This document shows, one piece after another, positions 10,183 to 63,272 of a stretch of DNA of 64,000 nucleotides; positions within the stretch are counted from its first letter, which is position 1, and each line of letters starts with the position of its first letter. Position numbers and translations under genes: made by a program. A model generated the notes under the pieces. The model was not told the DNA's origin. It ran no database searches and saw only the letters and a list, made by a program, of their open reading frames with translations. Source of the DNA: Kiritimatiellota bacterium (lineage in GTDB: Bacteria > Verrucomicrobiota > Kiritimatiellia > JAAZAB01); contig JAPLSY010000088.1 in NCBI GenBank assembly GCA_026398415.1, positions 13,633-77,632 of the forward strand. Reading direction: 5' to 3'.

Positions 10183-13083
10183 CTAACCTTCCACGATTTT
10201 GATTTCCTCTTCCGTCAGGCCGTACAGTTCGTACACCAGACGGTCAATCTGCTGGTCGGTCGCCTGCACGGCGTTCTGCAACGTCTCGCGCTCCCGCTCA
10301 CCCTTCGCCGCCCGCAACTTCGGCACCAGCGTCAGCATTTTGTCCACAAGCTCAACAAGCCGGTCGTGGCGGGCACGGTCTGCGGGGTTCTTGAAATCTA
10401 GTCTTGGGAGAGGGATCTGGCGGAAATCCGACGGATTGATGTTTACATTTGGGAAGTGCGCGCGATACCAGTAGTTGATGAGTTTTGAATTGAACACGCC
10501 TAAAACAAATCTGAGTGAATAGTCGCTACCTGCTTTATGAATGATGTTTGCCAAGTTATGCGCGTTGTAATGCAATTCCGTATCTAAAGTCGCGACCAAC
10601 CTGCGAGACAACGATTTATTCCGCATCGCGTGTAAAAGAATCTTTTCTCCGTTGAAGTATCGCTCATCGCGCGGGCACCAGAGCCACTCGCCATATGACA
10701 CAAACTCGCCGCCCCAAAGCACTTCGTAGCGTGCGATATTCTTTCCGCGCAGAAGCCTCTTCCAGCTTTTCCGGGGTTGAAATCCCGTATATTTGGCCTT
10801 CTCTGCATCGGATCCTGTCTTGTAAAGAATAATTCCTTGAGATGAGTCCGTAACGTCGCCAAGCCGAATTTCCCCGGATTCCACTGTCTTAAACAACTTG
10901 GCCTGTCTTGGGTTCGTGTGGACGTTGATCCTGCACGATTCATCTTGCTGAACTACGCTTTGTGCAATCTGGAAAGACTCGTCCCAATCCATCCTCGCCA
11001 CGCGCGTCTTGTCACTCTTGGGATCCAGCTTGTGAATTAAAAGCTTGTGAGTTGCAGTGCCATTGGTGTCCCGAATGTAAAAGAGCAGAACATTGTCAAC
11101 AACCACCCCGGCGAAAACGCCTTGCGGGAGGTCAACCAACTCTGTGATCTTCCCTTGGGTGACGAGGCGCCGGCGCAAAAGCTCATATGAATGTCCCATG
11201 AGAAAGGTGTTGGGCAGAATGTTGCCAAACCGCCCGCTGGTTCTAAGCAGCGAGGTGCCGCGCAGAACGAAAATCTGGTACAGGTCGTATCGTTTCCCAA
11301 GCCTGCCAGCTTCCCCATATGCGGAGGTGTAATAATCGCGATGCTCGGCGGGAATATTCTCGATTTGAACGTATGGCGGATTCCCGATCACGATATCGAA
11401 TCCCCCAACTTTCATGGCGTCGGGGAACTGCACGGGCCAGTCGAAGGCGTGGACACGCTCAAGGTCTGCGGAAACCTTTGAGAAGTCGGAGGCGATAAGT
11501 GAGTTTCCGCATTTGATGTTGTGGTATAGATTTGGCAATGCGCGTTCGTGTTCGTGGAAGAGGGTCATCTGCTGGGAAAGGGTGGTGTCATTTTCGCCTT
11601 CGAGGGCTTTCAGTAGCAACGAGAGCTTGGTGGTTTCGACGGCCTGCGGGTCGATGTCGACGCCGTAGATGTGGGTGGTGAGGATGCGTTTGCGTTCGCC
11701 GATGGAGAGACATGTTTCCCCTTTGGCGTTCTGATAGACGGCTTTGGCGTGTTTTTTAGAGAGGTTTGCCTGATGCCATTTCAGGCAATGGTCCAGCAGA
11801 AACTGATAGGCGCTGAGGAGGAAGGATCCGCTGCCGCAGGCCGGGTCGAGGATGCGAAAGGGGGGCGTGGTTTTGCCGCCAGCGAGATCGGCAGGGCTTT
11901 TGCCTTCAATCTGTTTGCCGATGGTGCTGTGGACGATGTAGTTCACGATATAGGCGGGGGTGTAGTATACGCCGCCGGCCTTGCGCACTTCGGGCTTTTC
12001 CTCGACTTTGGCCTGGTGTCCGGCGGTCAGGCGAATGACTTTGCCGAGGAAGCGTTCGTACACCGTACCGAGGATTTCCACGGGCATGACGCCGAAGTGG
12101 TATGGGCAACCGTGTTCGAAGTAGAGGCTTTGGAGAATGGGCTTGAGGGCATTGTCGTCCACGGCCAGACTCGGCGTGAGGGTGTCCGGCGCATCGGAGA
12201 CGCCGATTTCTTTCTGGAAGTGGAACAGGCCGGAGTTGTATTTCTGATCGGCCTTGCGGCACACGCCGCTCATAAAACGGTTGTAGATGTCCGGCTGTTC
12301 ACAGAGCTTGAGCAGTTGCCCGTAAGATTCCAGTCCGCGATCCTCGGCCATGCGCAGGAAAATGAGCCGGTCAATGATCCGTTGAACGGCGGCTGTGAGG
12401 TCTTCTTCCGACGACAAATCGCTGTTTCGCAGGGCGAGGTTTCGTGCCAGCACATCGCGCCAGCCTTCAATATCCTTCAAAAACTCGCTATCAACCTCGG
12501 AGGTGCCTCGCTTACGCTTGGAGGCAGCATACTTGTCGAACGTCCCAGACCAGATGGCCTCGCGCGAGAAAACGTCCCAAATCTCCCGCCAACGGTCAGG
12601 ATACTCGGTGAACCCGAAATACTGGATACGGGCATGGCTGGCCTTATCGCCGGGTCGCGGGCGAGCGGCGCAATCGTAAACGCCCAGTTCATCGAAGTCG
12701 GTCAGGATGGACAGAGCTAACTTGGCGCTGAAACCGTAGCGGCGAAGTTGAAAGGCTGGCGCGGGATCGGCGCTGATATTGACGCCGCACTTTTTGGCTT
12801 CGACGTAGAACTTCGGCAATGTGCCGATGCGGAAGGTGTAGTCGGGTGCCTTCAGTTGGCCTTCCACATCCAAACTGTCTTCGGTAATGACTTCGCGATA
12901 TTGGGGTGCGGTCATGGAGTGGTTGCGCACGTCCCAACCAAGGGCCTCGAAAAAAGGGTCTATGAGCGATTGGCGGACGTGAGCTTCCTTGACTCCAGGG
13001 GCGAGGAAGGACTGCCGGTTAGAGGTGAAGTACTGACATAGCTTTGCAACTTCATCTTTGCCTTGGTCGAATGTTTTACTCAT
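10183..13083 (-). CDS. Type IIG/IIL restriction-modification enzyme (MmeI/Eco57I-like): N-terminal PD-(D/E)xK endonuclease, central N6-adenine methyltransferase, C-terminal target-recognition domain
   Basis: N-terminal DYTFRIGTLPKFYVEAKK (D...EAK). SAM motif I ILDPACGSGSFLL. Motif IV IGNPPYVQ. 966 aa in a single polypeptide. Confidence 0.85.
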   Translation of the reverse strand: MSKTFDQGKDEVAKLCQYFTSNRQSFLAPGVKEAHVRQSLIDPFFEALGWDVRNHSMTAPQYREVITEDSLDVEGQLKAPDYTFRIGTLPKFYVEAKKCGVNISADPAPAFQLRRYGFSAKLALSILTDFDELGVYDCAARPRPGDKASHARIQYFGFTEYPDRWREIWDVFSREAIWSGTFDKYAASKRKRGTSEVDSEFLKDIEGWRDVLARNLALRNSDLSSEEDLTAAVQRIIDRLIFLRMAEDRGLESYGQLLKLCEQPDIYNRFMSGVCRKADQKYNSGLFHFQKEIGVSDAPDTLTPSLAVDDNALKPILQSLYFEHGCPYHFGVMPVEILGTVYERFLGKVIRLTAGHQAKVEEKPEVRKAGGVYYTPAYIVNYIVHSTIGKQIEGKSPADLAGGKTTPPFRILDPACGSGSFLLSAYQFLLDHCLKWHQANLSKKHAKAVYQNAKGETCLSIGERKRILTTHIYGVDIDPQAVETTKLSLLLKALEGENDTTLSQQMTLFHEHERALPNLYHNIKCGNSLIASDFSKVSADLERVHAFDWPVQFPDAMKVGGFDIVIGNPPYVQIENIPAEHRDYYTSAYGEAGRLGKRYDLYQIFVLRGTSLLRTSGRFGNILPNTFLMGHSYELLRRRLVTQGKITELVDLPQGVFAGVVVDNVLLFYIRDTNGTATHKLLIHKLDPKSDKTRVARMDWDESFQIAQSVVQQDESCRINVHTNPRQAKLFKTVESGEIRLGDVTDSSQGIILYKTGSDAEKAKYTGFQPRKSWKRLLRGKNIARYEVLWGGEFVSYGEWLWCPRDERYFNGEKILLHAMRNKSLSRRLVATLDTELHYNAHNLANIIHKAGSDYSLRFVLGVFNSKLINYWYRAHFPNVNINPSDFRQIPLPRLDFKNPADRARHDRLVELVDKMLTLVPKLRAAKGERERETLQNAVQATDQQIDRLVYELYGLTEEEIKIVEG

Positions 13084-13325: not shown

Positions 13326-13865
13326 TCAATCCGCCTTAAAACCAATCCGTTTTCTTGTCGGTTCCGGCGGGCGCATGAGTTCTCTGATTGCGTCGAAAAC
13401 GGCTTTGAATTGCACGTCGTATTTCTTCTCAAGTTCGGCCAGCTTGTGCGCCAGTTCGACGTTTGAGGTCAACCATTGGCGGATACGAACAAAGGCGCGC
13501 ATGATTTCAATGTTCACACTTACCGCGCGCGGGCTGTGCAACACGCTTGACAGCATGGCAACGCCCTGCTCGGTGAAGGCATAGGCCGGTTTCCGTCTGC
13601 CGCCGTGTCCATAACTTGAAGTGCCAAATTGGAACATCAAGTTTGTAAGTTCCTGCGGTTCAAGTTGAAGCATGAAGTCATCAGGGAAGCGTTCGCGGTT
13701 GCGTTTCACGGCCCGATTGAGTGCCTTGGTTTCCACGCCATACAGCGCGGCCAGGTCGCTATCCAACATAATCTTCTGGCCGCGGAGAAGCATGATTTTC
13801 TTTTCAATACTTGCCGCAGGTATCAGGTCGGTCTTGTTAGGCTTAGGCATGGGCAGGGACTTCAA
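13326..13865 (-). CDS. ORF6N-domain (KilA-N-like) DNA-binding protein
   Basis: [45 protein letters not shown] matches the ORF6N N-terminal signature. Confidence 0.7.
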
Positions 13866-14070: not shown

Positions 14071-15375
14071 CTATATCATGTCATGAAGTAATGAAGCAAG
14101 CAGTTTGTCACGCTGGGCACGCCAATTTTTGGCGGTCATGGATTTCAGGATGGCACAAATTGCAGCCTTGTCGATCTTGCCGGGATTGTCGGTGAGTGGA
14201 GGTAGCGCCGGTGCATTGCCGATTAAGACGGGCATGGAGCCTACGGCTTCCTTCATTGCCTTTTCCCCGACATGCGTATAAGTGTCGTGCATGGCCAGCG
14301 TTGAATGGCCCACAATCGCCATTGTCACCGAAAGCGGTGCGCCTGCTTCCCGGAGCAGGGAAACGGCGGAATGTCGTAATGAATGAAATCCGGCGGAGAT
14401 AACCTTGCGAACACCGTGGCCGTCTCGTTTTGTCACAATCCCATTTTTCTCGAAATGCTGTTGAACAATCTTGGATACCGCATACGGCCCTGTTTCCGTA
14501 TAAAGTTTTGCCATTTTCGGGAGAATATAGCCTTGCCGATTTTCCGGCGGTATTTCAGCAAGGATATTCGCAAGGGTAGGGTGCAAAGGAACAGTCAATT
14601 CCTTGCCGTTTCTCCTGGCCGTTTTGCGCGGCATATACCGGATCAAGCCCCGCTTCAGGTCTATGTTGCCCCATTCCATTGTCGCGGCGTCCGCCAGGCG
14701 TGCCCCCAGGTAGAGCCCCAGGGCCAGCATGAGGCGGAGTTCACCTTCCGCGCTTTGACATATTCGCTTTAATTCCTCGACGGTTAATTCCCGGCGGCTT
14801 TGCGGCGCCAGTCCTTTTTTCCGTTGGATCTCCTCCCACGGATTATTCTCTATTCTGGCTTTATCCTTCAGGACACGGAAAACCAGTTCACAGACGCGGA
14901 CATGCTTATTGAACGTGTTGGCCGTGACGCCCCGGCCCGCCAGGTGTGCGGCATATTCCCCGGCAATTTCCATATTCACACCCCGCAGGCTTTTAATGTC
15001 AGGATGTTTTTCAACAAGCCAGCGTTCAAAACAGCCCCATTGCAGGGCGTAGGTTGCCAGCGTAGCCTTGCCGCTGTCAGGCCGGTTAGAAGCCTTTTCG
15101 TAATTATCCCAGGTGGCAACGATGCTTAATGGCGGGTTTCTCTTTCCATTAAGGATGGCCAATTCATCTTTTGCCCCTTCAATCCGGGCTTTCACGTTCT
15201 GAAGGGTTTTGATTTCATCTTCGACCAGAAACGGCTCCATGATTTCAGCCAAGCGTTTTTCCGCTTCCCGGCGGACGGTCCGGCTGGTAGTCTTCATAAA
15301 TTTCTTGCCTGCCACCGTCCAACAGGCATAATAGGTTTTGTTTCGGAGAATGAGGTAGCCTTTACGTGTTTTCAT
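14071..15375 (-). CDS. Tyrosine site-specific integrase/recombinase
   Basis: C-terminal catalytic region HSLRHSAVSLLREAGAPLSVTMAIVGHSTLAMHDTYTHV (R...HxxR...Y). N-terminal SAM-like arm-binding region. Confidence 0.9.
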   Translation of the reverse strand: MKTRKGYLILRNKTYYACWTVAGKKFMKTTSRTVRREAEKRLAEIMEPFLVEDEIKTLQNVKARIEGAKDELAILNGKRNPPLSIVATWDNYEKASNRPDSGKATLATYALQWGCFERWLVEKHPDIKSLRGVNMEIAGEYAAHLAGRGVTANTFNKHVRVCELVFRVLKDKARIENNPWEEIQRKKGLAPQSRRELTVEELKRICQSAEGELRLMLALGLYLGARLADAATMEWGNIDLKRGLIRYMPRKTARRNGKELTVPLHPTLANILAEIPPENRQGYILPKMAKLYTETGPYAVSKIVQQHFEKNGIVTKRDGHGVRKVISAGFHSLRHSAVSLLREAGAPLSVTMAIVGHSTLAMHDTYTHVGEKAMKEAVGSMPVLIGNAPALPPLTDNPGKIDKAAICAILKSMTAKNWRAQRDKLLASLLHDMI

Positions 15376-51565: not shown

Positions 51566-51795
51566 GCCGTCTCCTTGAAAGAAGACAGAAGTCAGTAGTC
51601 AGAAGACAGAATACAGAAGAAGAATTCTGAATTCTGGCTCTTGGCATGACTTTCCTCATTCTGAATGCTGACTTCTGAATTCTGACTCCTTGTTACGTCA
51701 TTCTTTATACACGCGCGGCGTACCACGGCAAGTTATTTTTTTTTGCGTATCATGATGCTTGCGTCTCGTTTGATTCCACATAATATGCCCAGCTC

Positions 51796-52917
51796 ATGAA
51801 GTTAGGAGATAAAAGCCGCCGGTATGGGACCATGGCCCTGCTTGTGATTCTCGTGATCGTCTTTGCGTGGCTGGTTGTGTATCTGTGCTTCCGAGCAAAG
51901 GAACTGGGCACGCGGAACGAAGAAGCGGAAATACCGGGCTTGGACCTGCCGCTCATTGGCCGTCCGGCGACCAACCCTTTCCGGTATCTCGTGTTTCCCA
52001 CTGACCAGGTGCTCGACCGTAATGACCCTGACGTATTTCAGCCGGCGGCCTCCGGCCGACCTGAATCTGCGCTGTTCGGCTCGGTGCGCACCGCCAATTA
52101 TGGCAAAGGCCTGGCGGCGTCTTTTCATGAGGGCGTGGATATTGCCGCCGGCCAACGGGACGCCGCCGGCCGCCCACAGGATGCCGTGTATGCTGTGGCG
52201 AACGGCACCGTGGGCTATGTCAATACGAAAGCCGGGAATTCGAATTACGGCAAATATGTGGTGCTCATCCATGCTTGTCCTTCCGGGATGGTCTATACGC
52301 TCTACGCGCATCTGGCGGCCCTCTCGCCCGGCGTGATCCGGGGGCAATTCGTAAAAGCGGGGGATGTGCTGGGGCTCATCGGCCACACGGCCAATCCGCC
52401 GATCCCCTTAAGTCGAGCGCACCTGCATTTCGAAATCGGGCTGATCCTGAATGCGCGGTTCAGTCAGTGGTACCGCGCGCAAAAATTTCAACACGGGCAT
52501 GCCAACTTTAACGGGTGGAACCTGGTGGGCGTGGATCCCCTGGCAGTGTTTGAAAGTCAGCGGCAACAGCCGGACTTTGATTTTTTTCAATACCTGGCCG
52601 CCCTGCCAACATCCTTTGAGGTCGTATTGGCCGCGCGGCGCAAGCCGGACTTTTTCGATCGTTACCCGTGCCTCTGGGAAGGTGCGCCCTATCGGGGGGT
52701 CGGCCTTCAGATGGCGGTCTCGGAGGATGGTTTGCCGCTCAAGGGGCGCAATGCCACGGAAGCGGAACGTCAACTGCTGGGAGCGCATCCGAGCGCGATT
52801 CTGCGCGTGGATCCGGCGGCGCTCGGCCGCAACGGTTGTCACCTGGTCATTTGCCGGAAAGGCCTTTGGTGCCTGGGCCGTGAAGGCGAAAAGTGGCGGG
52901 ACATGTTGATGTATTAA
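51796..52917 (+). CDS. M23-family metallopeptidase (membrane-anchored)
   Basis: N-terminal TM. HEGVDIAA...GKYVVLIHACPSGMVYTLYAHL...GDVLGLIGHTANPPIPLSRAHLHFEI matches M23 HxxxD / HxH motifs. Confidence 0.8.
   Translation: MKLGDKSRRYGTMALLVILVIVFAWLVVYLCFRAKELGTRNEEAEIPGLDLPLIGRPATNPFRYLVFPTDQVLDRNDPDVFQPAASGRPESALFGSVRTANYGKGLAASFHEGVDIAAGQRDAAGRPQDAVYAVANGTVGYVNTKAGNSNYGKYVVLIHACPSGMVYTLYAHLAALSPGVIRGQFVKAGDVLGLIGHTANPPIPLSRAHLHFEIGLILNARFSQWYRAQKFQHGHANFNGWNLVGVDPLAVFESQRQQPDFDFFQYLAALPTSFEVVLAARRKPDFFDRYPCLWEGAPYRGVGLQMAVSEDGLPLKGRNATEAERQLLGAHPSAILRVDPAALGRNGCHLVICRKGLWCLGREGEKWRDMLMY
52861..52917. repeat. 57-bp direct repeat, copy 1 (3' end of M23 peptidase gene including stop TAA)
   Basis: ggcctttggtgcctgggccgtgaaggcgaaaagtggcgggacatgttgatgtattaa. 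Copy 2 at 62250-62306 matches at 52 of 57 positions. Confidence 0.85.
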
Positions 52918-53273
52918 CCGAATATTAACCGGAACATTGTGCGTTCTACGTGAAATTTTCAGGTGATAAAGATCTAAGGTCATCAGGCTTGCCCAACGTA
53001 GCGCGCCGAGTATAATCGAAAGAAAGACCGGCGCGTCCGGGCTCCGCCAGGGCGTTGCGTCTGCCTACGCCGGAACGGCTTCGCGCAGGCAAGCCCAGGC
53101 GAGAATGGAAAGATAGGGCCCGACTGCCAGTCGGGTTGCATGGGCAGTTGGATGACCTGAGTCATTAATTTTTATTTTCTGTGCCGTATGGTTGTTTTAG
53201 CCCCATAGCAACGGTTTTTTTAATCTATTCGCCCTTTGCTACGCAGATAAAGACTTCAGGAGGTTTTGTCGTA

Positions 53274-56200
53274 GTGGTCACTTTTTACAACCTCGGACCC
53301 ATCAGTCGTGTGATCGAGCAATTCCGGCGCCGATTTGGCCGCCCTGGCACCTTGGAAGTGTGCGAACCGCCCTTGCGCGCCGAGCTGTTTGGTTTGGAGC
53401 AATTTGGCAACCATGGAGAGGCCCTGGCCTCCGCGCATGATCTCGATCCCAAGTCGGGGGCCGAGTGCCTGTTGCCGCGGCTGACGGAAAATGCGCGCGT
53501 CATTCGCCATTCATACGAGGTTGTCGCCGAGGCCGTTCGCAGTGGTCAGCGGATGGCGCCGGCCGCTGAATGGTTGCTGGACAATTACTATCTCATCGCT
53601 GAACAGATTGATATCGCCCGGATGCATCTTCCCAAAGGCTATAGTCGGGCGTTGCCCCGACTGCGGACCGGTGTCTTACGGGGTTTCCCTCGGATCTACG
53701 ACCTGGCCCTGGAACTGGTCTCGCATACGGACGGTTGCGTGGATGCCGATAATGTGACCAATTTTGTGAAAGCTTACCAGCGCGTGCGTCTCCTGAAACT
53801 GGGTGAGCTGTGGGCCATCCCCATCATGCTCCGGCTGACGTTGCTGGAGAATTTGCGGCGGGTGGCCTATCGCATTGCCTGGCGGCGGCAGCATCGTGCC
53901 ATGGCACTTGAATGGGCCCGGCGCTTCGTCAACGTCGTCCAGAAAGACCCGCGATTGTTCGTGACTGAGTTGGCTGACTTTGTGCGCGCCAATCCGCCCA
54001 TGTCGCCGCCTTTTATTGCCGAACTTTATGCCAACATCGAGGGAGTTCACTCGGTTATCGGGCTGGCCGTCAATTGGATTGAACAGGAACTGTCTCTGCA
54101 AGGGCAGACGATCGAGTTGATTCAACAGGCGGAGAGCCAGGACCAGGCGGCCGACCAGGTATCCATCGGCAACACCATCACCAGTCTCAGGACTTTGAAC
54201 GCCATCGACTGGCGGAAGTTCGTTGAAGCCCTCAGTGTGACTGAAGCCGTGCTATGCCGCGACCCGGCCGGGATCTATCCCCGGATGGACTTCCGGACCC
54301 GAGACCATTACCGGCATGTCGTGGAGGACTTGGCCAAGAAGAGTGACCGGTCGGAAGAGGTTGTGGCGGAAATGGCGATCAAGCTGGCTGTGGCGCGCCG
54401 GAATCCTACCGCCGCAGAGTCCCGTGAGTTGCACGTTGGGTACTTCCTGATCGATCACGGGTTGCGCGAACTCCAGCGTGCGGCAGGGTATCGGCCGGAG
54501 CTTATCCGGCGAATCGGTCGGATTTTCTCATGCCGGCCGCTTGGAGTGTATCTCCTGATTTTCGGCGGACTCACGGCTTTGCTGACCGTCCCGCTCTTTT
54601 CGCAGATCTACCTGCGGTTGACGACGCACTGGGGCTGGGGTGTATGGGTGGCGGGTGTTATCCTGCTGGCCGTTTCACGTTCGGCGCTCATGCTCACCAA
54701 CTGGATCATCACTCTTCTGGTTCCGCCGCGGCCTTTGCCCCGGATGGACTTTTCCAAAGGCGTTGGCGATGATCATCGCACGGCGGTGGTTATTCCCACG
54801 TTGCTCTATTCGGAGCAAAGCATGCGGAAGCTCATCGAGCATCTTGAAATCTGCTACTTGGCCAATCGCGAGGCCAACCTGATCTTTGGGGTTCTGCTGG
54901 ATTTTCCGGATGCGGCGCAGGCGGAGCGGCCCCAGGAGGCCGCCTTACTCAATGCGGCTGTCGAGGGCATTCGGCTGTTAAACGGGAAATACGCCGCGGC
55001 CGGCGGATCATTATTCTTCCTATTGTATCGTCCCCGGGAATGGAATCCAGCCGAGCAAGTATGGATGGGCCATGAACGCAAGCGAGGCAAACTGGAGGCG
55101 TTTAACCGGCTGGTGTGTGAAGGGGCCCGCGGTCCGTTCACTGTCATCGAAGGGGACCTGGCCGTGTTGCGCTCGATCAAGCATGTGATCACGCTGGATG
55201 CGGATACACAGCTTCCGCCGCAGGCCGCGGCCAAATTGGCCGGCACTATCGCTCATCCGCTCAATCAACCGCAAATCAACCCGGCCACGGGTTGTGTGAA
55301 ACAGGGCTACGGAGTGCTGCAGCCGCGGCTGGGAGCCAGCCTGATCGGATCTCAGCGTTCCTGGTTTGCCCGGCTGTTCGCCGGAGAAACCGGCCTGGAT
55401 CCCTATACTCGCGCGGTATCCAATGTCTACCATGATCTCTGCGGAGAGGGACCTTTTGTGGGCAAAGGTATCTATAACGTGCAGGCCTTTTACACAGCGA
55501 CGGGCAATCGGTTTCCGCTTAACCGAATCCTCAGCCATGACTTGATCGAGGGTTGTTATGCCCGTTGTGGCTTCGTCAACGATGTCGAATTGATCGAGGA
55601 CTCCTCGCCGTCTTATCTGGCCGATTCCCGTCGCCATCACCGGTGGATCCGGGGAGACTGGCAGATTGCCCGCTGGCTTCTGCCCCTGGTACCCGGTCCG
55701 GATGGAAAGCGTGTGGTCAATCCGCTCGGGGCACTGGCAAAATGGATGATCTTCGATAACTTGCGGCGCAGCCTGGTCCCAGCCGCTCTCCTGGCGACCT
55801 TCATCCTCGGCTGGGCAGGGGCGCCGAACGAAGCGTTGCGCTGGACGGCGACCCTGCTCACTCTCTATTTTCTACCCAGCTTGGCGCGCTCGGCGCGCGC
55901 CCTTCTGGCCAAGGCCAAACAGGCTGTTTGGTTGGCGCACCTCGGGCATGTCCTGGTCAATGAATCGAGGACCTGGACGATTGAGGGCCTGGAACTAATG
56001 TTCCTCCCGTTTCAAACCAGCGTGTATCTCGACGCGATTTTACGGGTATTCTGGCGCCTGGGCATCAGCGGGCGCCGGCTTCTGGAATGGCAAACGGCGG
56101 CCGAAACGGCTCGGACTGTTTCCTGCGGACTCCTGGCAACCGCGCGAACCCTATGGATTGCGCCGGCGGTGGCGCTGGGAATGGCGAGTGTCCTCATAGC

Positions 56201-59200
56201 CGCCGGTACGGCGGGCTGGATTCTGACCGGTCCGCTGTTGGTGCTGTGGGGGAGCGCTCCGTTCGCGGCTTGGATCACGAGCCGGCCGTTTGTTCGACAT
56301 AAGGCACAGTTGACGGACGAACAAATCTTCTTTCTCCGAAACGTGGCGCGGCGCACATGGGCCTTTTTTGATCATTTTATCGGGCCGGAACATCACTGGC
56401 TGCCGCCAGATAATTTCCAGGAAGTGCCCCATCCCCATGTCGCGTTGCGCACCTCTCCGACCAACATTGGCATGGGACTGATCAGCACTCTGGCGGCCTA
56501 TGATTTCGGGTACCTGTCCGCCGGCCGCCTCATCGCTCGGATCGAACAGACCTTGGCCACCATGGAAAAACTAGAGCGCTACCGTGGGCACTTCTACAAC
56601 TGGTACGATACGCAAACGCTCATTCCGCTTCACCCGCGCTACGTGTCAACAGTAGACAGCGGCAATTTGGCCGGCCACTTGACCACGCTCAGTGAGGGGC
56701 TTCGGGAATTGCCGGGCGCGCCGCTGTTGCCCCCGCACTGGTGGAAAGGATTCGAAGATACCTCCCGGATACTACTGGAGGAAATAGATCGCCTGACGGC
56801 CGGCCATGCAGAATCAAAAACAGGTTTGCGTCAAATGTCAGAAATCAGAAATCAGATATCCGTCATCCGTCGTCTGTCGTCTGCCGTCTGTCTCCCGGCT
56901 CTGCACCGGGTGCTGACGGACTTTTGTTTTCTGCTGGCCGAATTGGCGCCCGGGATATCCTCCGACGACCAGGCTCCGCCTGAGCGCTCCGCCCAGGCGA
57001 GAAGCGTGACCTTCTGGTTGACGGCTTTGCGCGCGGAGTGCGATGATTTGCTGGGTGAGCTCCGGTATTTGACTCCCTGGCTTGACGAAGCGCCTCCGGC
57101 GGCATCTTCGTCTTCGGGAACCGGCCTGCCCACACCTGCCCGCAGTGCGATGCACAGCATTGCAGGCGGGTCGCTACGCGAAGTGTTGCGGGCGGGGGAA
57201 CAAGACGATGCGCTATGGGAGATCTTGTTGGCGGAGATCACCCCCGGGGTTACGCTGAAAGATTTGGCCACCTTGGCCCAGCGCCTGGCGCCGCGGGTGG
57301 ACCAAATCCGCCGGGAATGTCCGGATTCGCCCCGCGTGGAAAGGTTAAGCAAGCTCCTGACAGTGGCCAGTGAGCACGCGACAGAGCGCATCGAGGCCAT
57401 CCAGGATCTCATGGCCCGGTGTGAGGAATCAGGCGAGATGGATATGGAATTCCTGTATGACCCCCTGCGGCACTTGCTGTCCCTGGGATACAGCTTGGAA
57501 ACGCGCCGGTGCGACACGGGTTACTACGATCTCCTGGCGTCGGAAGCGCGCTTGGGCAGTTTCTTGGCCGTAGCGCGCGGTCAATTACCGCTCGATCACT
57601 GGTTCCATCTGGGCCGGCAGCTTGCCCCCGGCGGCGGATCGCCGGTGCTCGTGTCGTGGAGCGGGTCGCTGTTTGAGTATCTCATGCCCTTGCTGGTGAT
57701 GCCGAGTTTCGACAATACCTTACTGGATCAGGCGTGCCAGCGGGCAGTCAGGCGGCAGATGCGATATGGCCGGCGACATCATATTCCCTGGGGATTTTCC
57801 GAGTCCTGCTACAACCAGGTGGATTCCCAAATGACCTATCAGTACCGGGCATTTGGTATTCCCGGTCTGGGCCTGAAACGCGGGTTGGCCGACGATCTGG
57901 TGGTGGCCCCTTACGCCAGTGTAATGGCGCTGATGATTGCCCCCCGGGAGGCCTGCCGGAACCTCCAAACCTTGAGCGGTCAGGGTCTGGCCGGCCGGTT
58001 CGGATTGTATGAAGCGATCGATTACACTTCGAGCCGGCTGCCAAGCGGCGAGCGATGCGCTGTGGTTAGAACTTACATGGCCCACCACAGCGGGATGAGC
58101 CTTCTGGCTCTGGACTTTGCCTTGAACGGACAGCCGATGCAACGCCGCTTCCTGTCAAACCCGCCGTTCCGGTCCGCGATCCTGTTGTTGCAGGAACGCA
58201 TTCCGGTGGCCGGCATCAGGCCGCAGACCGGTAGGAACGTGGCCGAAACGCCGGACCGCAATCTTGCGGATAAAGCGACCGAGACCATCGCCCGATTTTT
58301 TACAACAGCGGACACGCCCATTCCCGATATCCACCTGCTTTCCAACGGTCGTTACCATGTCATGATTACCAATGCCGGGGGAGGTTATAGCCGGTGGCAG
58401 GACCTGGCGCTGACGCGCTGGCGGGAAGATGTGACCCGCGACAACTGGGGCACCTTCTTTTATATCAAGGATGTAGGTTCGGGTCACAGCTGGTCGACAA
58501 CCTGGCAGCCGCTATGCCAGGACCTGGACCGCTATGAAGGGACGTACTCCCAGGGGATAGCGGAATTTCGCGCCGTCAAGGACCAGGTCGAAGTCCACAC
58601 GCGGATCGCAGTCTCGCCCGAAGACGACATCGAGTTGAGACGGATGATTGTGACCAATCTTTCCCGAAAGAGTCGGACCCTGGAACTGACCAGCTACGCC
58701 GAGGTGGTGCTTTTGGAACCCCGCGCGGAAGCCGGGCATCCGGTCTATCAAGGCCTCTTCGTGCAGACCGAATTATTGCCGCGCAAGGCCGCGATTTTGT
58801 GCACGCGGCGGTCCCGATCCGCCGAAGAACATTGGCCTTGGCTTTTCCATGCGATGATTGTCCGCAGCCCGTCCGCCGGGCCGCCGCCTTCGTTTGAAAC
58901 AGACCGCTCCAGGTTCATTGGCCGAGGACGGACATCGGCCGCGCCGGCCGTGTTAACTAAACCCGGTTCTTTGTCCAACAGCGCCGGGAACGTTCTTGAT
59001 CCGGTCGTCGCCGTTCGACGCCAGCTTCGACTCCGCCCTGGGGAAAGCATTGTCGTGGATGCTATCCTGGGGATTGACAAGAGCCGTGAGGGCGCCGCTT
59101 CACTGGTGGATAAATACCATGACCATCGCCTGGCAGATCGGTTGTTCGATGTAGCCTGGACCCACAACCAGGTGCTGTTGCATCAGTTGCGGATCAGTGA

Positions 59201-62162
59201 AGCCCAGGCCCAGCTTTTTGGGAGGTTGGCCAGTTCGATTCTATACGCCGATTCCCGCTGTCGGGCCAGTCCGAGCCTGATTGCCCGGAATCGCAAGGGG
59301 CAGTCCGGTCTGTGGAGCTACGGGATTTCCGGCGATTTGCCCATTGTCCTGTTGCGCATGAGCGATTTGGCGAACCTGGATTTGGCCCGGCAACTGATTC
59401 ACGCCTATGCTTATTGGCGGCACAAAGGCCTTCGCGTGGACCTGGTTATCTGGGCGGAAGCCTTTTCCGGCTATCGTCAGAGTCTTTTTGACGCCATCAT
59501 CGGGCTGGTCCATAGCGGACCCGAGAGTCTGATTTTCGATCAATCCGGCGGGATTTTCGTGCGTAACATTGACCAGGTGCCGGAGGAGGATCAGCTCCTG
59601 TTACAATCGGTCGCCCGGGTCATTCTCAGTGATCGCTTCGGCAACCTGGCCGAACAGATCGAACGCCGGATCAGCCAGGAGGCCGGCGTCGAAGACTTAT
59701 TGCCGGTCGTGGAAGCGGCTAAGCCGCTTCCCGGCGAGCGGGAGATTCCGAAGCGCGACCTGACCTTTTTCAATGGGTTGGGCGGATTTACCGGGGATGG
59801 CCGGGAATACGTGGTCCGGCTTTATCCGGGCCAGGCGACCCCGGCGCCCTGGGCCAACGTCTTGGCTAATCCCCTGTTCGGGTCGGTGATCAGCGAATCG
59901 GGCAGTGCCTACACGTGGTTTACCAATGCCCATGAGTTCCGGCTCACGTCCTGGCACAACGATCCGATCTGTGATTCGAGCGGGGAGGCCTTCTACATTC
60001 GCGATGAGGAGACGGGCCGGTTCTGGTCGCCGACCCCCGGCCCGGCCCGGGGTATCAATCCTTACGTGTGCCGGCACGGACTCGGTTACTCGGTATTCGA
60101 GCATACGCAGGACCGTCTATTTACGGAACTGACTACCTATGTGGGGGTGGACGCGCCGGTGAAATTTATTTCCATCAAAGTGCGCAATCTATCCGACCGC
60201 ACCCGCCGAATCAGTGTTACTGGTTTCTGTGAATGGGTTCTCGGCGAAAGCCGGAGCCGGTCTGCCATGCATGTGGTCACCCGGCTTGATCCGCAGACGG
60301 GTGCCATCTTCGCCCGGAATGCTTTCAATATCGATTTTCCCGGCCATGTGGCCTTCTTGCATTGCAATGAGTCGGATCGCAGTTTGACCGGGAGCCGTAT
60401 GGAATTCATCGGACGGAACGGGTCCCCGGCCATTCCCGAAGGGTTGAGGCGAAAGCATCTTTCCAACCGCATTGGCGCCGGCTTGGATCCCTGCGCGGCC
60501 ATCCAGGCTTATCTTGAGATCCCCCCCGGCCAACAACGGGAAGTCGTCTTCGTTTTGGGCGCCGCCAAAAGTGAGTCGGAGGCCAGGTCGCTCCTGCGGT
60601 CGTTCAGCGGGAACGATGGGGCCCGGCAGGAATTGGAAAGGGTCTGGCAGTTCTGGAAGCACCAACTCGGCAGCGTCTATGTCGAGACGCCGGATCCATC
60701 GGTAAACTTTCTGGTAAATCACTGGCTGTTGTATCAGGTGTTGACGTCGCGGTTCTGGGGGCGTAGCGGGTATTACCAATCCAGCGGGGCCTACGGATTC
60801 CGCGACCAGTTGCAGGATTCCCTGGCGTTCCTGTACGGGGACCCGGGGCTGACCCGCCAGCATCTGTTGATTGCGGCCGGCCGTCAGTTCGGCGAAGGCG
60901 ACGTGCAACACTGGTGGCATTCACCGTCCGGCCGCGGCATCCGGACACGCATTTCAGACGACTATCTGTGGCTGCCCTATGTCGCTTGCCGCTACGTTGC
61001 GGTCACCGGGGATACCGGAATCCTGGATGAGGAGATTCCCTTCCTGGATGCGCGAGCCCTGGGCGCGGCGGAGGAATCCAATTTCGACCGGCCCGCTATC
61101 AGCGAGCATCGGGCTTCGCTATACGAGCACTGCGTTCGGGCGATCAAGCACGGCCTGGCTTTCGGCGCACACGGCCTGCCGCTCATGCAGGGCGGGGATT
61201 GGAACGACGGAATGAACCGGGTCGGACGTGGCGGAAAAGGCGAGAGTGCCTGGCTGGCTTTCTTCCTGTACGACGTGCTCATAAACTTTGCGAAGCTGGC
61301 CGTCCGGCGCGGGGATGATCCCTTGGTAAAATTGTGCGCCGATCAGGCGGAGCGGCTCAAGCGCCAGATCGAGGCCGAGGCCTGGGATGGGCTCTGGTAC
61401 AAACGCGCCTTTTTTGACGATGGGACGCCTCTTGGGGCGGCGGAAAATCACGAATGCCGGATTGATTCGCTCCCGCAGAGCTGGGCCGTCCTCAGCGGCG
61501 CCGCCATTCCCGGGAGAGGCGTACAGGCGATGCAATCGGTTTCCAAACACCTCGTGGACCGGAATCTCGGCGTGATCAAACTGTTCGACCCGCCTTTCGA
61601 TTCGGCGCCGTGGGATCCGGGATACATCAAGGGGTATATCCCCGGCGTTCGCGAAAATGGCGGCCAGTATACCCATGCCGCGGTCTGGACGGCTATGGCA
61701 TGGGCTGCCCTCCAGCGCCCCGACGAAGCCTGGGACTGCTTCACCCTGCTAAATCCGATTCGGCACGCCGATACGCCCGAGCGGGCGGCGATTTACAAGG
61801 TGGAGCCTTACGTGGTCGCCGCCGATCTATATACGGCCAAGGGCCAGGAAGGCCGGGGCGGCTGGACCTGGTATACCGGGGCCGCCGGATGGATGTATCA
61901 ACTGCTCGTGGAACATCTCCTTGGATTGAAACTGAAAGTGGATCGTCTGACCCTGGCGCCGCTCTTTCCCGCGGGATGGTCGGAATACAAAATTCACTAC
62001 CGTTACCGGAACACGTTCTATCATATTCAGGTTATTCGAATGGAACCGGCGGCGTTGCATGTTCGCCGTCTGGTTGTTGACAACATCGAGCAACCCGACT
62101 TGACGATCCCTCTGGTCGACGACCGCCTCGACCATTTTGTTCAGGTGGAAGTGCGTAGTTGA
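53274..62162 (+). CDS. ndvB: Cyclic beta-1,2-glucan synthase (Cgs/ChvB/NdvB-like; GT84 glycosyltransferase plus C-terminal GH94 phosphorylase-like domains), about 2960 aa
   Basis: N-terminal EPPLRAELFGLEQF region and multi-TM segment. GT domain (VITLDADTQLPPQAAAKL). C-terminal GH94 signature (GGDWNDGMNRVGRGGKGESAWLAFFLYDVL). The ORF track starts at 53181; a GTG at 53274 lies 10 nt after AGGAGG and is the likelier start. Confidence 0.75.
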   Translation: MVTFYNLGPISRVIEQFRRRFGRPGTLEVCEPPLRAELFGLEQFGNHGEALASAHDLDPKSGAECLLPRLTENARVIRHSYEVVAEAVRSGQRMAPAAEWLLDNYYLIAEQIDIARMHLPKGYSRALPRLRTGVLRGFPRIYDLALELVSHTDGCVDADNVTNFVKAYQRVRLLKLGELWAIPIMLRLTLLENLRRVAYRIAWRRQHRAMALEWARRFVNVVQKDPRLFVTELADFVRANPPMSPPFIAELYANIEGVHSVIGLAVNWIEQELSLQGQTIELIQQAESQDQAADQVSIGNTITSLRTLNAIDWRKFVEALSVTEAVLCRDPAGIYPRMDFRTRDHYRHVVEDLAKKSDRSEEVVAEMAIKLAVARRNPTAAESRELHVGYFLIDHGLRELQRAAGYRPELIRRIGRIFSCRPLGVYLLIFGGLTALLTVPLFSQIYLRLTTHWGWGVWVAGVILLAVSRSALMLTNWIITLLVPPRPLPRMDFSKGVGDDHRTAVVIPTLLYSEQSMRKLIEHLEICYLANREANLIFGVLLDFPDAAQAERPQEAALLNAAVEGIRLLNGKYAAAGGSLFFLLYRPREWNPAEQVWMGHERKRGKLEAFNRLVCEGARGPFTVIEGDLAVLRSIKHVITLDADTQLPPQAAAKLAGTIAHPLNQPQINPATGCVKQGYGVLQPRLGASLIGSQRSWFARLFAGETGLDPYTRAVSNVYHDLCGEGPFVGKGIYNVQAFYTATGNRFPLNRILSHDLIEGCYARCGFVNDVELIEDSSPSYLADSRRHHRWIRGDWQIARWLLPLVPGPDGKRVVNPLGALAKWMIFDNLRRSLVPAALLATFILGWAGAPNEALRWTATLLTLYFLPSLARSARALLAKAKQAVWLAHLGHVLVNESRTWTIEGLELMFLPFQTSVYLDAILRVFWRLGISGRRLLEWQTAAETARTVSCGLLATARTLWIAPAVALGMASVLIAAGTAGWILTGPLLVLWGSAPFAAWITSRPFVRHKAQLTDEQIFFLRNVARRTWAFFDHFIGPEHHWLPPDNFQEVPHPHVALRTSPTNIGMGLISTLAAYDFGYLSAGRLIARIEQTLATMEKLERYRGHFYNWYDTQTLIPLHPRYVSTVDSGNLAGHLTTLSEGLRELPGAPLLPPHWWKGFEDTSRILLEEIDRLTAGHAESKTGLRQMSEIRNQISVIRRLSSAVCLPALHRVLTDFCFLLAELAPGISSDDQAPPERSAQARSVTFWLTALRAECDDLLGELRYLTPWLDEAPPAASSSSGTGLPTPARSAMHSIAGGSLREVLRAGEQDDALWEILLAEITPGVTLKDLATLAQRLAPRVDQIRRECPDSPRVERLSKLLTVASEHATERIEAIQDLMARCEESGEMDMEFLYDPLRHLLSLGYSLETRRCDTGYYDLLASEARLGSFLAVARGQLPLDHWFHLGRQLAPGGGSPVLVSWSGSLFEYLMPLLVMPSFDNTLLDQACQRAVRRQMRYGRRHHIPWGFSESCYNQVDSQMTYQYRAFGIPGLGLKRGLADDLVVAPYASVMALMIAPREACRNLQTLSGQGLAGRFGLYEAIDYTSSRLPSGERCAVVRTYMAHHSGMSLLALDFALNGQPMQRRFLSNPPFRSAILLLQERIPVAGIRPQTGRNVAETPDRNLADKATETIARFFTTADTPIPDIHLLSNGRYHVMITNAGGGYSRWQDLALTRWREDVTRDNWGTFFYIKDVGSGHSWSTTWQPLCQDLDRYEGTYSQGIAEFRAVKDQVEVHTRIAVSPEDDIELRRMIVTNLSRKSRTLELTSYAEVVLLEPRAEAGHPVYQGLFVQTELLPRKAAILCTRRSRSAEEHWPWLFHAMIVRSPSAGPPPSFETDRSRFIGRGRTSAAPAVLTKPGSLSNSAGNVLDPVVAVRRQLRLRPGESIVVDAILGIDKSREGAASLVDKYHDHRLADRLFDVAWTHNQVLLHQLRISEAQAQLFGRLASSILYADSRCRASPSLIARNRKGQSGLWSYGISGDLPIVLLRMSDLANLDLARQLIHAYAYWRHKGLRVDLVIWAEAFSGYRQSLFDAIIGLVHSGPESLIFDQSGGIFVRNIDQVPEEDQLLLQSVARVILSDRFGNLAEQIERRISQEAGVEDLLPVVEAAKPLPGEREIPKRDLTFFNGLGGFTGDGREYVVRLYPGQATPAPWANVLANPLFGSVISESGSAYTWFTNAHEFRLTSWHNDPICDSSGEAFYIRDEETGRFWSPTPGPARGINPYVCRHGLGYSVFEHTQDRLFTELTTYVGVDAPVKFISIKVRNLSDRTRRISVTGFCEWVLGESRSRSAMHVVTRLDPQTGAIFARNAFNIDFPGHVAFLHCNESDRSLTGSRMEFIGRNGSPAIPEGLRRKHLSNRIGAGLDPCAAIQAYLEIPPGQQREVVFVLGAAKSESEARSLLRSFSGNDGARQELERVWQFWKHQLGSVYVETPDPSVNFLVNHWLLYQVLTSRFWGRSGYYQSSGAYGFRDQLQDSLAFLYGDPGLTRQHLLIAAGRQFGEGDVQHWWHSPSGRGIRTRISDDYLWLPYVACRYVAVTGDTGILDEEIPFLDARALGAAEESNFDRPAISEHRASLYEHCVRAIKHGLAFGAHGLPLMQGGDWNDGMNRVGRGGKGESAWLAFFLYDVLINFAKLAVRRGDDPLVKLCADQAERLKRQIEAEAWDGLWYKRAFFDDGTPLGAAENHECRIDSLPQSWAVLSGAAIPGRGVQAMQSVSKHLVDRNLGVIKLFDPPFDSAPWDPGYIKGYIPGVRENGGQYTHAAVWTAMAWAALQRPDEAWDCFTLLNPIRHADTPERAAIYKVEPYVVAADLYTAKGQEGRGGWTWYTGAAGWMYQLLVEHLLGLKLKVDRLTLAPLFPAGWSEYKIHYRYRNTFYHIQVIRMEPAALHVRRLVVDNIEQPDLTIPLVDDRLDHFVQVEVRS

Positions 62163-62249
62163 AGACAGCCTTTATTCCTGCGACAATCCTCATCCAGGAC
62201 GCGTAGGACTGCGGCGATGGTTGCCACTTGGTAATTAATTTACCGGTAA

Positions 62250-62306
62250 GGCCTGTGGCACCTGGGCCGTGAAGGCGAAAAGTGGCGGGACATGCTGATG
62301 TATTAG
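62250..62306. repeat. 57-bp direct repeat, copy 2 (retains peptidase-like reading frame ...LGREGEKWRDMLMY and a TAG stop; overlaps the PHP gene stop)
   Basis: ggcctgtggcacctgggccgtgaaggcgaaaagtggcgggacatgctgatgtattag. Confidence 0.85.
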
Positions 62307-63217
62307 AGAGCCGGCAATGCGTAGGGCAGGGGCTGGCGGCGCCGGTAGTGCACAGCGTGGGTATAACCTGCACTGCGGGCCAGGGCCAGCGAGGCGTCGA
62401 ACTGCCAACCCACTTCCTCCGGCCGATGCGCATCGGAGCCGAAGCAGATCGGAATGTCCCGTTCCCTGGCCAGCGACAGGAGCAGGGCCGAGGGATAAAT
62501 TTCATGGACCGGTCGGCGCAGGCCGGAGGAATTGATTTCAATGGCCATGCCGGCGGCTGCTACGCGATCCAGGACAGGCTGAGCCATTTCCTTCAAATCC
62601 CGGTCGGAGGGTCGGTGTCCGAATTTTTTCGGCAGGTCCAGGTGCCCAATCACATCGGCTAATCGGCCGTCAGCCAATCGGCTGCCAGTCAATCGACTGT
62701 CTGCCAATTGGCAGTCGGCCAGCTTGCCGATGAGGTCAAAATAGGTGGCCCAAGTGTTCGTAACATCCACGGAATCCCACACATGCCGTTCGTCGGGATT
62801 GTCGAATCCCCAATTGGCGATGTAATGCACTGAGCCGAGCACCAGGTCGAACTCCTGAAGCGGGAGCCAGTCCTGGAGAAAGCGTTCACAGCCTTCGTAA
62901 TAATCGGCTTCGATGCCGAATAGGACCGTCGGTTTACCCGCCTCTGGCGGCGCCGAAGGCGACCAGGGTTGGCGCGCGTGCGCCAAGTCGGCAATCATTG
63001 TCCGATACAGTGGAAACTGGTCAAGCCGCATGCGGTTGACCGGATCGTAACCATCCGGGTTGGGCACATGATCGGTGAAACAAAGTTCCGGCAGGCCCAG
63101 GTCCATGGCCCGCGCGTGAAACGCGGAGGCTTTGCCTTGGGCGTGTTGGCAGAGCTCCGTGTGAATATGATAATCGGGAAGCATCGGCGATAAAAATGGT
63201 TGATGGAGGATGGTCAA
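62303..63217 (-). CDS. PHP-domain phosphoesterase (histidinol-phosphatase HisJ family)
   Basis: N-terminal DYHIHTELCQHAQG (PHP motif I), later HVPNPDGYD and GSDAHRPEEVG. Confidence 0.7.
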   Translation of the reverse strand: MTILHQPFLSPMLPDYHIHTELCQHAQGKASAFHARAMDLGLPELCFTDHVPNPDGYDPVNRMRLDQFPLYRTMIADLAHARQPWSPSAPPEAGKPTVLFGIEADYYEGCERFLQDWLPLQEFDLVLGSVHYIANWGFDNPDERHVWDSVDVTNTWATYFDLIGKLADCQLADSRLTGSRLADGRLADVIGHLDLPKKFGHRPSDRDLKEMAQPVLDRVAAAGMAIEINSSGLRRPVHEIYPSALLLSLARERDIPICFGSDAHRPEEVGWQFDASLALARSAGYTHAVHYRRRQPLPYALPAL

Positions 63218-63272
63218 TGGTTAATGGTGTATGACTCTATTCCGACACCATTTTCCATCAACCATTGACCAT
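63192..63272. repeat. Palindromic microrepeat element (units of about AATGGTTGATGG / AATGGTCAATGG in inverted orientation) forming a long imperfect hairpin between the ankyrin gene stop and the PHP gene start
   Basis: Left arm atggttgatggaggatggtcaatggttaatggtg. Right arm caccattttccatcaaccattgaccatt. Perfect sub-stems of 11-12 bp can be drawn. Confidence 0.6.

Follow-up and report, generated by a model that had tools for sequence, protein, structure and literature searches.

A peptidase gene-end remnant behind a relocated cyclic beta-1,2-glucan synthase gene in a Kiritimatiellota bacterium as a probable recombination scar

We have analyzed a stretch of 64,000 nt from an uncultured Kiritimatiellota bacterium (NCBI GenBank assembly GCA_026398415.1, contig JAPLSY010000088.1, positions 13,633 to 77,632 of the forward strand; hereafter the window), in which a giant gene of the cyclic beta-1,2-glucan synthase type, cgs, lies between two copies of the 3' end of an M23 peptidase gene. 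Copy 1 is the functional end of the peptidase gene and copy 2 stands behind cgs, against a gene for a PHP-domain protein. We consider it probable (about 0.8, by our own estimate) that copy 2 is a scar of non-site-specific recombination, left by the relocation of a native gene, and not an attachment (att) site. A first-pass annotation of this DNA had read the same repeat as the signature of a block of 9.3 kb inserted at the peptidase 3' end with target duplication, or mobilised by a site-specific mechanism. The features on which the argument turns are as follows.

51796..52917, + strand: M23 peptidase gene, intact, 373 aa (Pfam PF01551, E 7e-17)
52826..52917, + strand: copy 1, ~92 nt, the functional 3' end of the peptidase gene with its stop (83% to 62211-62305, one gap)
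52873..52905, + strand: 33-nt perfect core, copy 1
52918..53221: spacer from the peptidase stop to the cgs-derived DNA, its first ~30-55 nt being native peptidase-downstream spacer
53222..53273, + strand: native cgs upstream region brought along, ~52 nt (Shine-Dalgarno AGGAGG at 53258-53263)
53274..62162, + strand: cgs, cyclic beta-1,2-glucan synthase-type (probable GTG start; open frame from 53181)
62163..62203: spacer 3' of the cgs stop, 41 nt, common to the contig L060 (see below), with no match elsewhere
62205..62306, + strand: copy 2, dead peptidase 3'-end remnant, its last 57 nt well preserved and of the L001 type
62262..62294, + strand: 33-nt perfect core, copy 2
62303..63217, - strand: PHP-domain gene (Pfam PHP and PHP_C), its stop (62303-62305) overlapping the TAG of copy 2

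A duplicated gene end around a native gene

The repeat is real, and none is expected by chance. The 57-bp duplication first reported holds on alignment of the copies: 52861-52917 and 62250-62306 agree at 52/57 positions, the five mismatches being t/g, t/c, g/a, t/c and a/g, and they belong to an ungapped alignment of 68 nt (52849-52916 with 62238-62305) at 91% identity. The perfect 33-nt core occurs exactly twice in the window and in 0/100 shuffles. With one 4-nt gap allowed, similarity runs on upstream to ~62205-62211 (52826-52916 against 62211-62305, 83%), so that the duplicated piece is about 95-100 nt long (52826-52917 against 62211-62306). Copy 2 still codes for the peptidase tail, GLWHLGREGEKWRDMLMY followed by a stop, and its TAG (62304-62306) lies over the PHP stop (TTA on the + strand), both as the first-pass annotation had it. 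It is a dead fragment, because an in-frame taa (62247-62249) precedes the tail and a 4-nt insertion has occurred at ~62232-62235. The tail motif is not dispersed. It is single-copy in every relative examined, always at the 3' end of the peptidase gene, and a scan of metagenomes yielded only five occurrences, each at that same position; the idea of a dispersed repeat was discarded. We also rejected a template/variable pair of a diversity-generating retroelement, in that only 1/5 mismatches affects an adenine, on either copy, in the sense that such a pair requires, and the pattern is not adenine-specific; no reverse transcriptase domain was found among the scanned proteins of the window.

Gene order in relatives tells which state is derived. 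A scan for the peptidase among species-representative genomes gave 41 loci in metagenome-assembled genomes (MAGs) of Kiritimatiellia and Verrucomicrobiota, eight of them close (L001-L008, peptidase 71-87% aa identity over full-length alignments), and the metagenome scan with the tail motif gave five more contigs, two of which (L047 and L048) span both the peptidase and the PHP gene. The order in L001-L008 is HEAT, agmatinase and arginine decarboxylase (all on the - strand), peptidase (+), PHP and ankyrin (-), and cgs is absent, as it is from all five metagenome contigs. In the ten contigs that show both genes (L001-L008, L047 and L048) the peptidase and PHP genes are direct convergent neighbours, and the empty site for which synteny was to be compared thus exists. 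As judged from this gene order, the insertion of cgs between two genes that are convergent neighbours elsewhere is confirmed as derived. The overlap of the stops, in contrast, finds no support as the ancestral state that it had been taken for, since 10/10 empty sites have 109-465 nt between the convergent stops.

That part of the earlier claim which placed the insertion between the peptidase and PHP genes stands; the part which made the whole 9.3 kb between the copies an inserted block does not, because the bases that follow copy 1 are native peptidase-downstream spacer. Directly after copy 1, TAACCGAATATTAA is identical in the empty-site contig L047 and nearly so in L008; a 14-mer in this spacer is identical to L047, and L006 aligns for ~50 nt past copy 1, to ~52969 (z 4.6; z 5.0 for an element of the L001 spacer). 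Further in, collinear blocks of similarity with the spacers of L001, L007 and L049 appear, part of which may come from a small GC-rich repeat that counts among the indels separating L001 from L007. By BLAST, the spacers 52918-53220 and 62163-62249 have no significant match elsewhere in the window or in the compared loci.

The cgs protein measures 2962 aa from the GTG at 53274, or 2993 aa from 53181, and matches PF10091 (Glycoamylase), PF06165 (GH94 supersandwich, E 7e-165) and PF17167 (GH94 catalytic domain, E 2e-109). It aligns over 100% of homologs named cyclic beta-1,2-glucan synthetase by their sources, and its giant size (~2,900 aa) and C-terminal GH94 phosphorylase-type module would place it with proteins of the Cgs/NdvB/ChvB type. 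In other bacteria such genes are linked to envelope and to osmotic or host-interaction functions. Set against the core genes, the composition of cgs is native (GC 0.59-0.62, GC3 0.705, codon-usage distance 0.39, the smallest of all genes), which does not fit an imported block. Its best homologs, at 90, 89, 88, 83, 83, 75, 73, 70 and 69% aa identity, all come from related MAGs, a range like that of the flanking core genes. A foreign origin of cgs is thus out by GC, GC3, codon usage and the gradient of ortholog identity. The absence of an integrase or transposase from the block was borne out: Pfam shows only cgs, with its GH94/glucoamylase domains. No inverted repeats pair the block ends, no transposase domain occurs in the block, and no further credible gene lies between the copies, all other open reading frames overlapping cgs on other frames or strands. 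Transposons and insertion sequences typically duplicate 2-15 bp of target, against the ~100-nt repeat found here, and there is neither a transposase nor a terminal inverted repeat.

A second filled genome and a possible route

Only one other genome has cgs between the peptidase and PHP genes: L060, a Logan SRR22388265 contig that carries the closest cgs (P0001, 90.3% aa identity), in the order arginine decarboxylase, peptidase, cgs, PHP and ankyrin, as in the window. It has a single copy of the tail. On the left, L060 has ~30 nt of the same native spacer followed by the cgs upstream region, and lacks ~281 nt of the window, bounded there by two GATAAAGA octamers (52965-52972 and 53246-53253). 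A ~45-nt imperfect repeat flanking these 281 nt was considered and rejected as not significant (9.5 against a null of 8.4 +/- 1.6), only the 8-mer GATAAAGA being common. On the right, homology between the window and L060 runs 41 nt past the cgs stop and ends at 62203 (L060 11813); copy 2 starts at 62205-62211. L060 continues with ~20 nt and then a PHP allele with a longer, L008-like C-terminus. The PHP protein occurs with two types of C-terminus, a short one ending in L (window, L001 and L007) and a longer one in L060 (ending in MDAKKNN, at 11834-11857) and in L008 (ending in DLNKMI). Bracketing of the att type is at odds with L060, which has the insertion with one tail copy and ceases to match the window at the very start of copy 2.

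L060 also bears on whether the arrangement exists at all. The window comes from a 206-kb MAG contig, and a 33-nt exact repeat could confuse short k-mer graphs, so a chimeric join at the common 33-mer had to be weighed. L060, an independent assembly, has the same peptidase-cgs-PHP adjacency, however; both junctions of the block are unique sequence, and the degenerate left part of copy 2 is continuous with the 3' flank of cgs, which places the fragment in a real molecule. We regard an assembly artefact as extremely improbable.

The allele types of the flanks and of the two copies differ. Over the concatenated flanking genes (arginine decarboxylase, peptidase, PHP and ankyrin) the window is 92.0, 91.9 and 90.7% identical in nucleotides to L001, L007 and L002 (85, 85 and 82% at third positions), against 88.5% to L060 (77% at third positions). 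PHP is L001-like from its stop codon onward (first 120 nt, 0.90 to L001 against 0.71 to L060). The last 57 nt of copy 2 agree at 54/57 positions with the tails of L001, L004 and L048, at 52/57 with copy 1 and at 49/57 with L060. Copy 1 is L001/L007-like from -100 to -58 (42/43 and 41/43); its last ~57 nt have the Cys codon TGC, to be compared with TGT in L047 and L060, and a TAA stop, and the spacer that follows is of the CCGAAT type, as in L047, L008, L060 and L006, not of the L001/L007 type. Along the peptidase gene, L060 draws level with L001 in identity (0.92 against 0.91) over the final ~120 nt only. The pattern, which rests on few diagnostic sites, is therefore one of flanks and copy 2 of the L001 type, and of a copy 1 whose last ~57 nt and spacer start are of the L047/L060 type.

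A specific route that would account for this pattern, and which we put forward tentatively, at a little under an even chance, starts in an L060-like lineage. There, cgs, together with ~52 nt on its upstream side and at least 41 nt on its downstream side, would have been copied or moved from an older locus beside the Maf and Dus genes into the peptidase-PHP spacer, by an illegitimate joint that left no repeat. DNA with the peptidase-spacer-cgs junction would then have entered the lineage of the window, whose flanks are L001/L007-like. On the left, a homologous crossover would have fallen within the final ~60-100 nt of the peptidase gene; on the right, cgs +41 would have been joined illegitimately to the resident peptidase gene, at a point ~100 nt short of the stop. 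The functional peptidase gene would thereby end in donor-type sequence (copy 1 and the native-type spacer), and the resident 3' end, displaced behind cgs, would be copy 2. The resident spacer between copy 2 and PHP would have been lost afterwards, possibly through a deletion at the 5-nt microhomology ATTAG that would give exactly GTATTAGAGAG, and copy 2 would then have decayed. ATTAG is common to both stop contexts in the closest relatives, as GTATTAG at the peptidase stop of L001 and as CATTAGAGAG in the PHP stop region of L007 (+ strand). It is the direction of the transfer, the type of joint and the deletion of the spacer that we infer. The route accounts for three observations: homology between the window and L060 breaks off exactly at the beginning of copy 2, copy 2 has the allele type of the resident, and the phylogeny of the flanks conflicts with the filled state.

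The second step of the proposed route resembles homology-facilitated illegitimate recombination, or else the single crossover of a circularised fragment. The former, in which a homologous anchor at one end is combined with an illegitimate joint at little or no homology at the other, needs neither recombinase nor transposase; it has reportedly been described during the uptake of related DNA by de Vries and Wackernagel in 2002 and by Hulter and Wackernagel in 2008, two papers cited in PMC8116780. The likeness would lie in the peptidase 3' region serving as anchor and in a new gene standing beside a conserved one. The differences are that the apparent anchor is very short here, that the donor would be a sister lineage with the same gene family, and that the event is ancient and read from comparative sequence only.

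Several points weigh against the scar and its route as proposed. The donor-type tract in the peptidase gene is short, with few diagnostic sites (one Cys codon, the stop codon and the start of the spacer). The phylogeny is near star-like, and the discordance between flanks and cgs could stem from later recombination of the flanks. The one other filled genome is a single short Logan contig. Loss of the resident spacer needs a separate step or a spacer-less recipient, and every sampled relative has a spacer. Moreover, homology-facilitated illegitimate recombination more often deletes than duplicates recipient DNA, its usual outcome being deletion, whereas ~100 nt of recipient DNA are duplicated here. 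Lastly, the decay of copy 2 is uneven in a way that this route does not predict, with 9 substitutions and an indel in 43 nt against at most 3 substitutions in the last 57 nt (p ~0.01).

This unevenness speaks for a reading in which copy 2 has been kept for a function, for example as a terminator or other 3' element of cgs and PHP, which are now convergent, or as a short stretch with a coding or regulatory role; copy 2 does lie exactly between the two convergent stops. However, L060, in which the arrangement of cgs and PHP is otherwise alike, does not have it; copy 2 has no start codon and a stop immediately upstream; the terminator scan found no terminator-like site in 62163-62306, and there is no Rfam match. 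Synonymous divergence in the peptidase tail is ordinary among orthologs (0.31 over the last 19 codons against 0.29 overall); on this figure, and for want of an Rfam match and of a terminator in copy 2, a functional element embedded in the peptidase tail was rejected. We consider functional retention highly improbable.

The junctions also recall filler or templated DNA at illegitimate joints, as described for T-DNA (PMC8395108), and the capture of fragments at breaks in yeast (PMC1976456). As there, an inserted fragment is edged by a little DNA that was copied from close by, here with the ATTAG microhomology at the PHP joint. The filler cases are described for eukaryotic end joining, whereas ours comes from a bacterium.

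The older cgs locus and alternative routes

In relatives cgs is found at other loci. The order is MiaB ... Maf, cgs, Dus in L042, L043 and L044; DLH, cgs, Dus in L045; and cgs, Maf, Dus in L059. Further out, the gene occurs in other contexts, beside EtfA/Pgi in L051 and also in L052 and L053. Since L044 and L005 belong to one MAG, and L045 and L004 to another, the empty peptidase-PHP site and cgs beside Dus coexist in one genome. Homology of the window to the other cgs loci is confined to 53221-62170, with a start at 53221-53230 against L042, L043, L044 and L060, and the DNA that moved with cgs therefore includes only ~52 nt upstream and at most 41 nt downstream. A cgs upstream region of ~150 nt, conserved between L042 and L044, is missing from the window, and none of Maf, Dus and MiaB is found within its 64 kb.

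The cgs of the window is a mosaic. Codons 150-299 are 98.8% identical in nucleotides to L059; the closer alleles are those of L042/L059 over codons 1-900 and 1260-1700, and the closest is that of L060 (0.90-0.95) over codons 1860-2460. Homologous exchange among these lineages is thus real, because alleles of L059, L042 and L060 are combined in one gene.

At the Maf/Dus locus, too, cgs is bracketed by direct repeats, of 92-290 nt and 89-96% identity, the positions in each contig being:

L042: 7377-7665 and 16986-17188
L043: 7108-7396 and 16717-16919
L044: 9601-9691 and 18892-18983

Upstream of cgs the repeat is a truncated Maf-3'/Dus-5' fragment, and downstream it runs on into an intact Dus. 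The junction after the fragment is identical in L042 and L044, so that the scar at the Dus locus is one old event; substitutions that are specific to a genome and common to both copies suggest gene conversion between them. Three observations concern the surroundings of Dus. Firstly, L042 and L043 are 100% identical in amino acids from MiaB through cgs and only 93.8% in Dus, which points to a recombination or assembly breakpoint at the cgs/Dus junction. Secondly, the search for Dus homologs shows, with P0230 and P0233, that some more distant relatives unite the Maf and Dus domains in one polypeptide of 538-553 aa, consistent with an old, tightly linked pair; the maf and dus genes of L059 overlap by 4 nt. 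Thirdly, L054, L055 and L056, from a close relative by Dus (92% aa), have neither Maf nor cgs upstream of Dus but a PAS/HisKA sensor kinase, and the DNA 5' of Dus has therefore been broken by rearrangement more than once in this clade.

The scar at the Dus locus bears on a reading in which no transfer is needed, and in which tandem or dispersed duplication, or template switching, relocated cgs within the ancestry of the window itself. The target would have been duplicated from ~100 nt inside the peptidase gene, redundant DNA including a second spacer would have been deleted, and L060 would later have lost the scar. A like order (Maf, Dus-5' fragment, cgs, intact Dus) in L042, L043 and L044 speaks for such a history, as do the cgs-Maf-Dus order of L059 and the collinearity of Maf and the Dus fragment of L044 with Maf-Dus of L059. 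Neighbouring genes that survive as pseudogene fragments are the classic sign of duplication-random loss (PMC5745709), and all five differences in the last 57 nt of the copies could postdate the duplication. The duplication-random loss model was described for mitochondrial genomes, with pseudogene remnants (PMC5745709, PMC4223735). In our case, too, gene order has changed without mobile elements, and a decaying fragment of a neighbour, copy 2, edges a native cgs; the Dus-5' fragment beside cgs in L042-L044, set against the cgs-Maf-Dus of L059, fits the model well. The differences are that we deal with a bacterial chromosome and two loci that are apparently far apart, that no intermediate with full duplicates was found among these loci, and that L060 is without a remnant. 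Moreover, a deletion in L060 would have to begin exactly at the left edge of the remnant, and a different, L008-like PHP allele follows directly; copy 2 is nearer to L001-type tails than to copy 1; a tandem duplication would be large, since the peptidase and cgs loci lie on separate contigs (213 and 253 kb) in a relative; and the extra deletion of the second spacer copy is still needed. The DLH 3' remnant expected upstream of cgs under simple tandem duplication was not found in L042 or L044. We judge relocation within the lineage of the window unlikely, though it is the chief rival, and we prefer transfer of the donor junction from an L060-like lineage.

Genomic islands are classically integrated by tyrosine recombinases into the 3' ends of genes, which leaves direct repeats, attL and attR, at their borders. 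For the window this would mean that cgs rides on a cassette whose attP bears a stand-in for the end of the peptidase gene, and that a recombinase supplied in trans crossed over in the 33-nt core to give attL (copy 1) and attR (copy 2). The anatomy is suggestive, with direct repeats of a gene 3' end that share a perfect core, an intact and restored target gene, and empty sites with a single copy. Copy 1 looks hybrid, resident-like on its left and of another type on its right, and copy 2 is degenerate on the left and of resident type on the right; site-specific integration alone would explain the sharp change of divergence near -57. A tyrosine integrase gene does exist 38 kb away, at 14071-15375, and at the Dus locus cgs is likewise bracketed by a duplicated gene end. 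Yet no recombinase lies in or adjoining the block here or at any cgs locus examined, and the distant integrase belongs to a low-GC defence island. The cargo differs from that of an integrase island in being one native, housekeeping-type gene of native composition; native spacer follows copy 1; and L060 has the insertion without an attR. No fixed element or site can be recognised, because cgs occupies several unrelated loci, the bracketing sequences are unrelated, and the ends of the block differ (-52/+41 here, ~-294/+217 in L042). Site-specific integration is thus quite improbable, and the notion of a mobile or att element, which the first-pass annotation had offered, does not agree with the native composition, the orthologs at other loci, the want of a recombinase and the L060 insertion without a second copy.

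A broader variant holds that cgs is, in this clade, a recurrently moving single-gene cassette that integrates into the ends of host genes and rebuilds them, in the window the 3' end of the peptidase gene and in relatives the 5' end of Dus. The hybrid copies would then be attL/attR-like, the change at -57 would be the crossover point, and the agent would be a recombinase in trans or a dedicated homology-guided mechanism. We hold a cassette of this kind to be improbable to much the same degree.

Neighbouring features and the meaning of the scar

The peptidase is 100% identical to P0241, an NCBI Kiritimatiellaeota MAG protein, and the next peptidase match is at 86%, no closer relative of the window having been found beyond this self-hit. 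The cgs protein of the window is absent from the protein collection, although its peptidase is present as P0241. Within the spacer between the peptidase stop and cgs three elements were located:

52989-53016: sigma-70-like site (TTGCCC, 16 nt, TATAAT; 10/12)
~53043-53117: GC-rich element
53119-53135: palindromic hairpin

The sigma-70-like site is a candidate new promoter for the relocated cgs, whose conserved native upstream region is gone. The GC-rich hairpin had been taken for part of a cgs leader; it sits in spacer DNA that is missing from L060 and is not homologous to the cgs upstream regions of relatives, and in the terminator scan it scores as a weak terminator on the minus strand, that of PHP; it does not belong to a cgs leader. 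A GC-rich element of ~85 nt (TCCGCCAG...GCCTTCGGCGG...) is present in the spacers of L001, L003 and L049 and absent from that of L007 (alignment columns 144-229). Similar sequences in the window (53043-53117) and in L050 (793-866) raise the possibility of a small dispersed repeat. Long intergenic inverted repeats with arms of short-period, low-complexity sequence occur at 51580-51683 and 63195-63272 of the window (examples being AGAAGACAGAAGTCAG.../...CTGACTTCTGAATTCT and ATGGTTGATGG.../...CCATCAACCATT). The spacer of L001 has one made of CCAAAATCCAAGTTTCAAATTCCAAGG and its inverse, and a like architecture is seen in the spacers of L001, L003, L004, L007 and L048. The architecture recurs with sequences that differ by lineage, and these may be long-stem bidirectional terminators.

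At the other end of the window, between 853 and 15375, genes have a GC content of 0.47-0.55, against ~0.58-0.62 elsewhere, and the region has the look of a defence/integrase island. Encoded there are TPR and Sel1 repeat proteins, a WYL/WCX regulator (3034-4065), a YhcG/DUF1016 PDDEXK nuclease (4052-5173), an HNH protein (6294-7370), a DUF2779 protein (7581-9050), an Eco57I/MmeI-type restriction-modification enzyme (10183-13083), an ORF6N/Rha protein (13326-13865) and the tyrosine integrase (14071-15375). No tRNA gene lies within the window.

The relocation scar of cgs is an instance of a known phenomenon and otherwise a matter of ordinary genome microevolution. Its interest is that of a clean and datable case in which a very large native gene changes its chromosomal address without the machinery of mobile elements, in an uncultured lineage of Kiritimatiellia, and which can be compared at every point, with its scar, empty sites, old locus and a sister arrangement at hand. 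It is also a warning against calling a genomic island from no more than a gene end repeated directly, and at length, on both sides of a big gene. Moreover, if cgs has lost its native upstream region, its regulation in the lineage of the window may differ.

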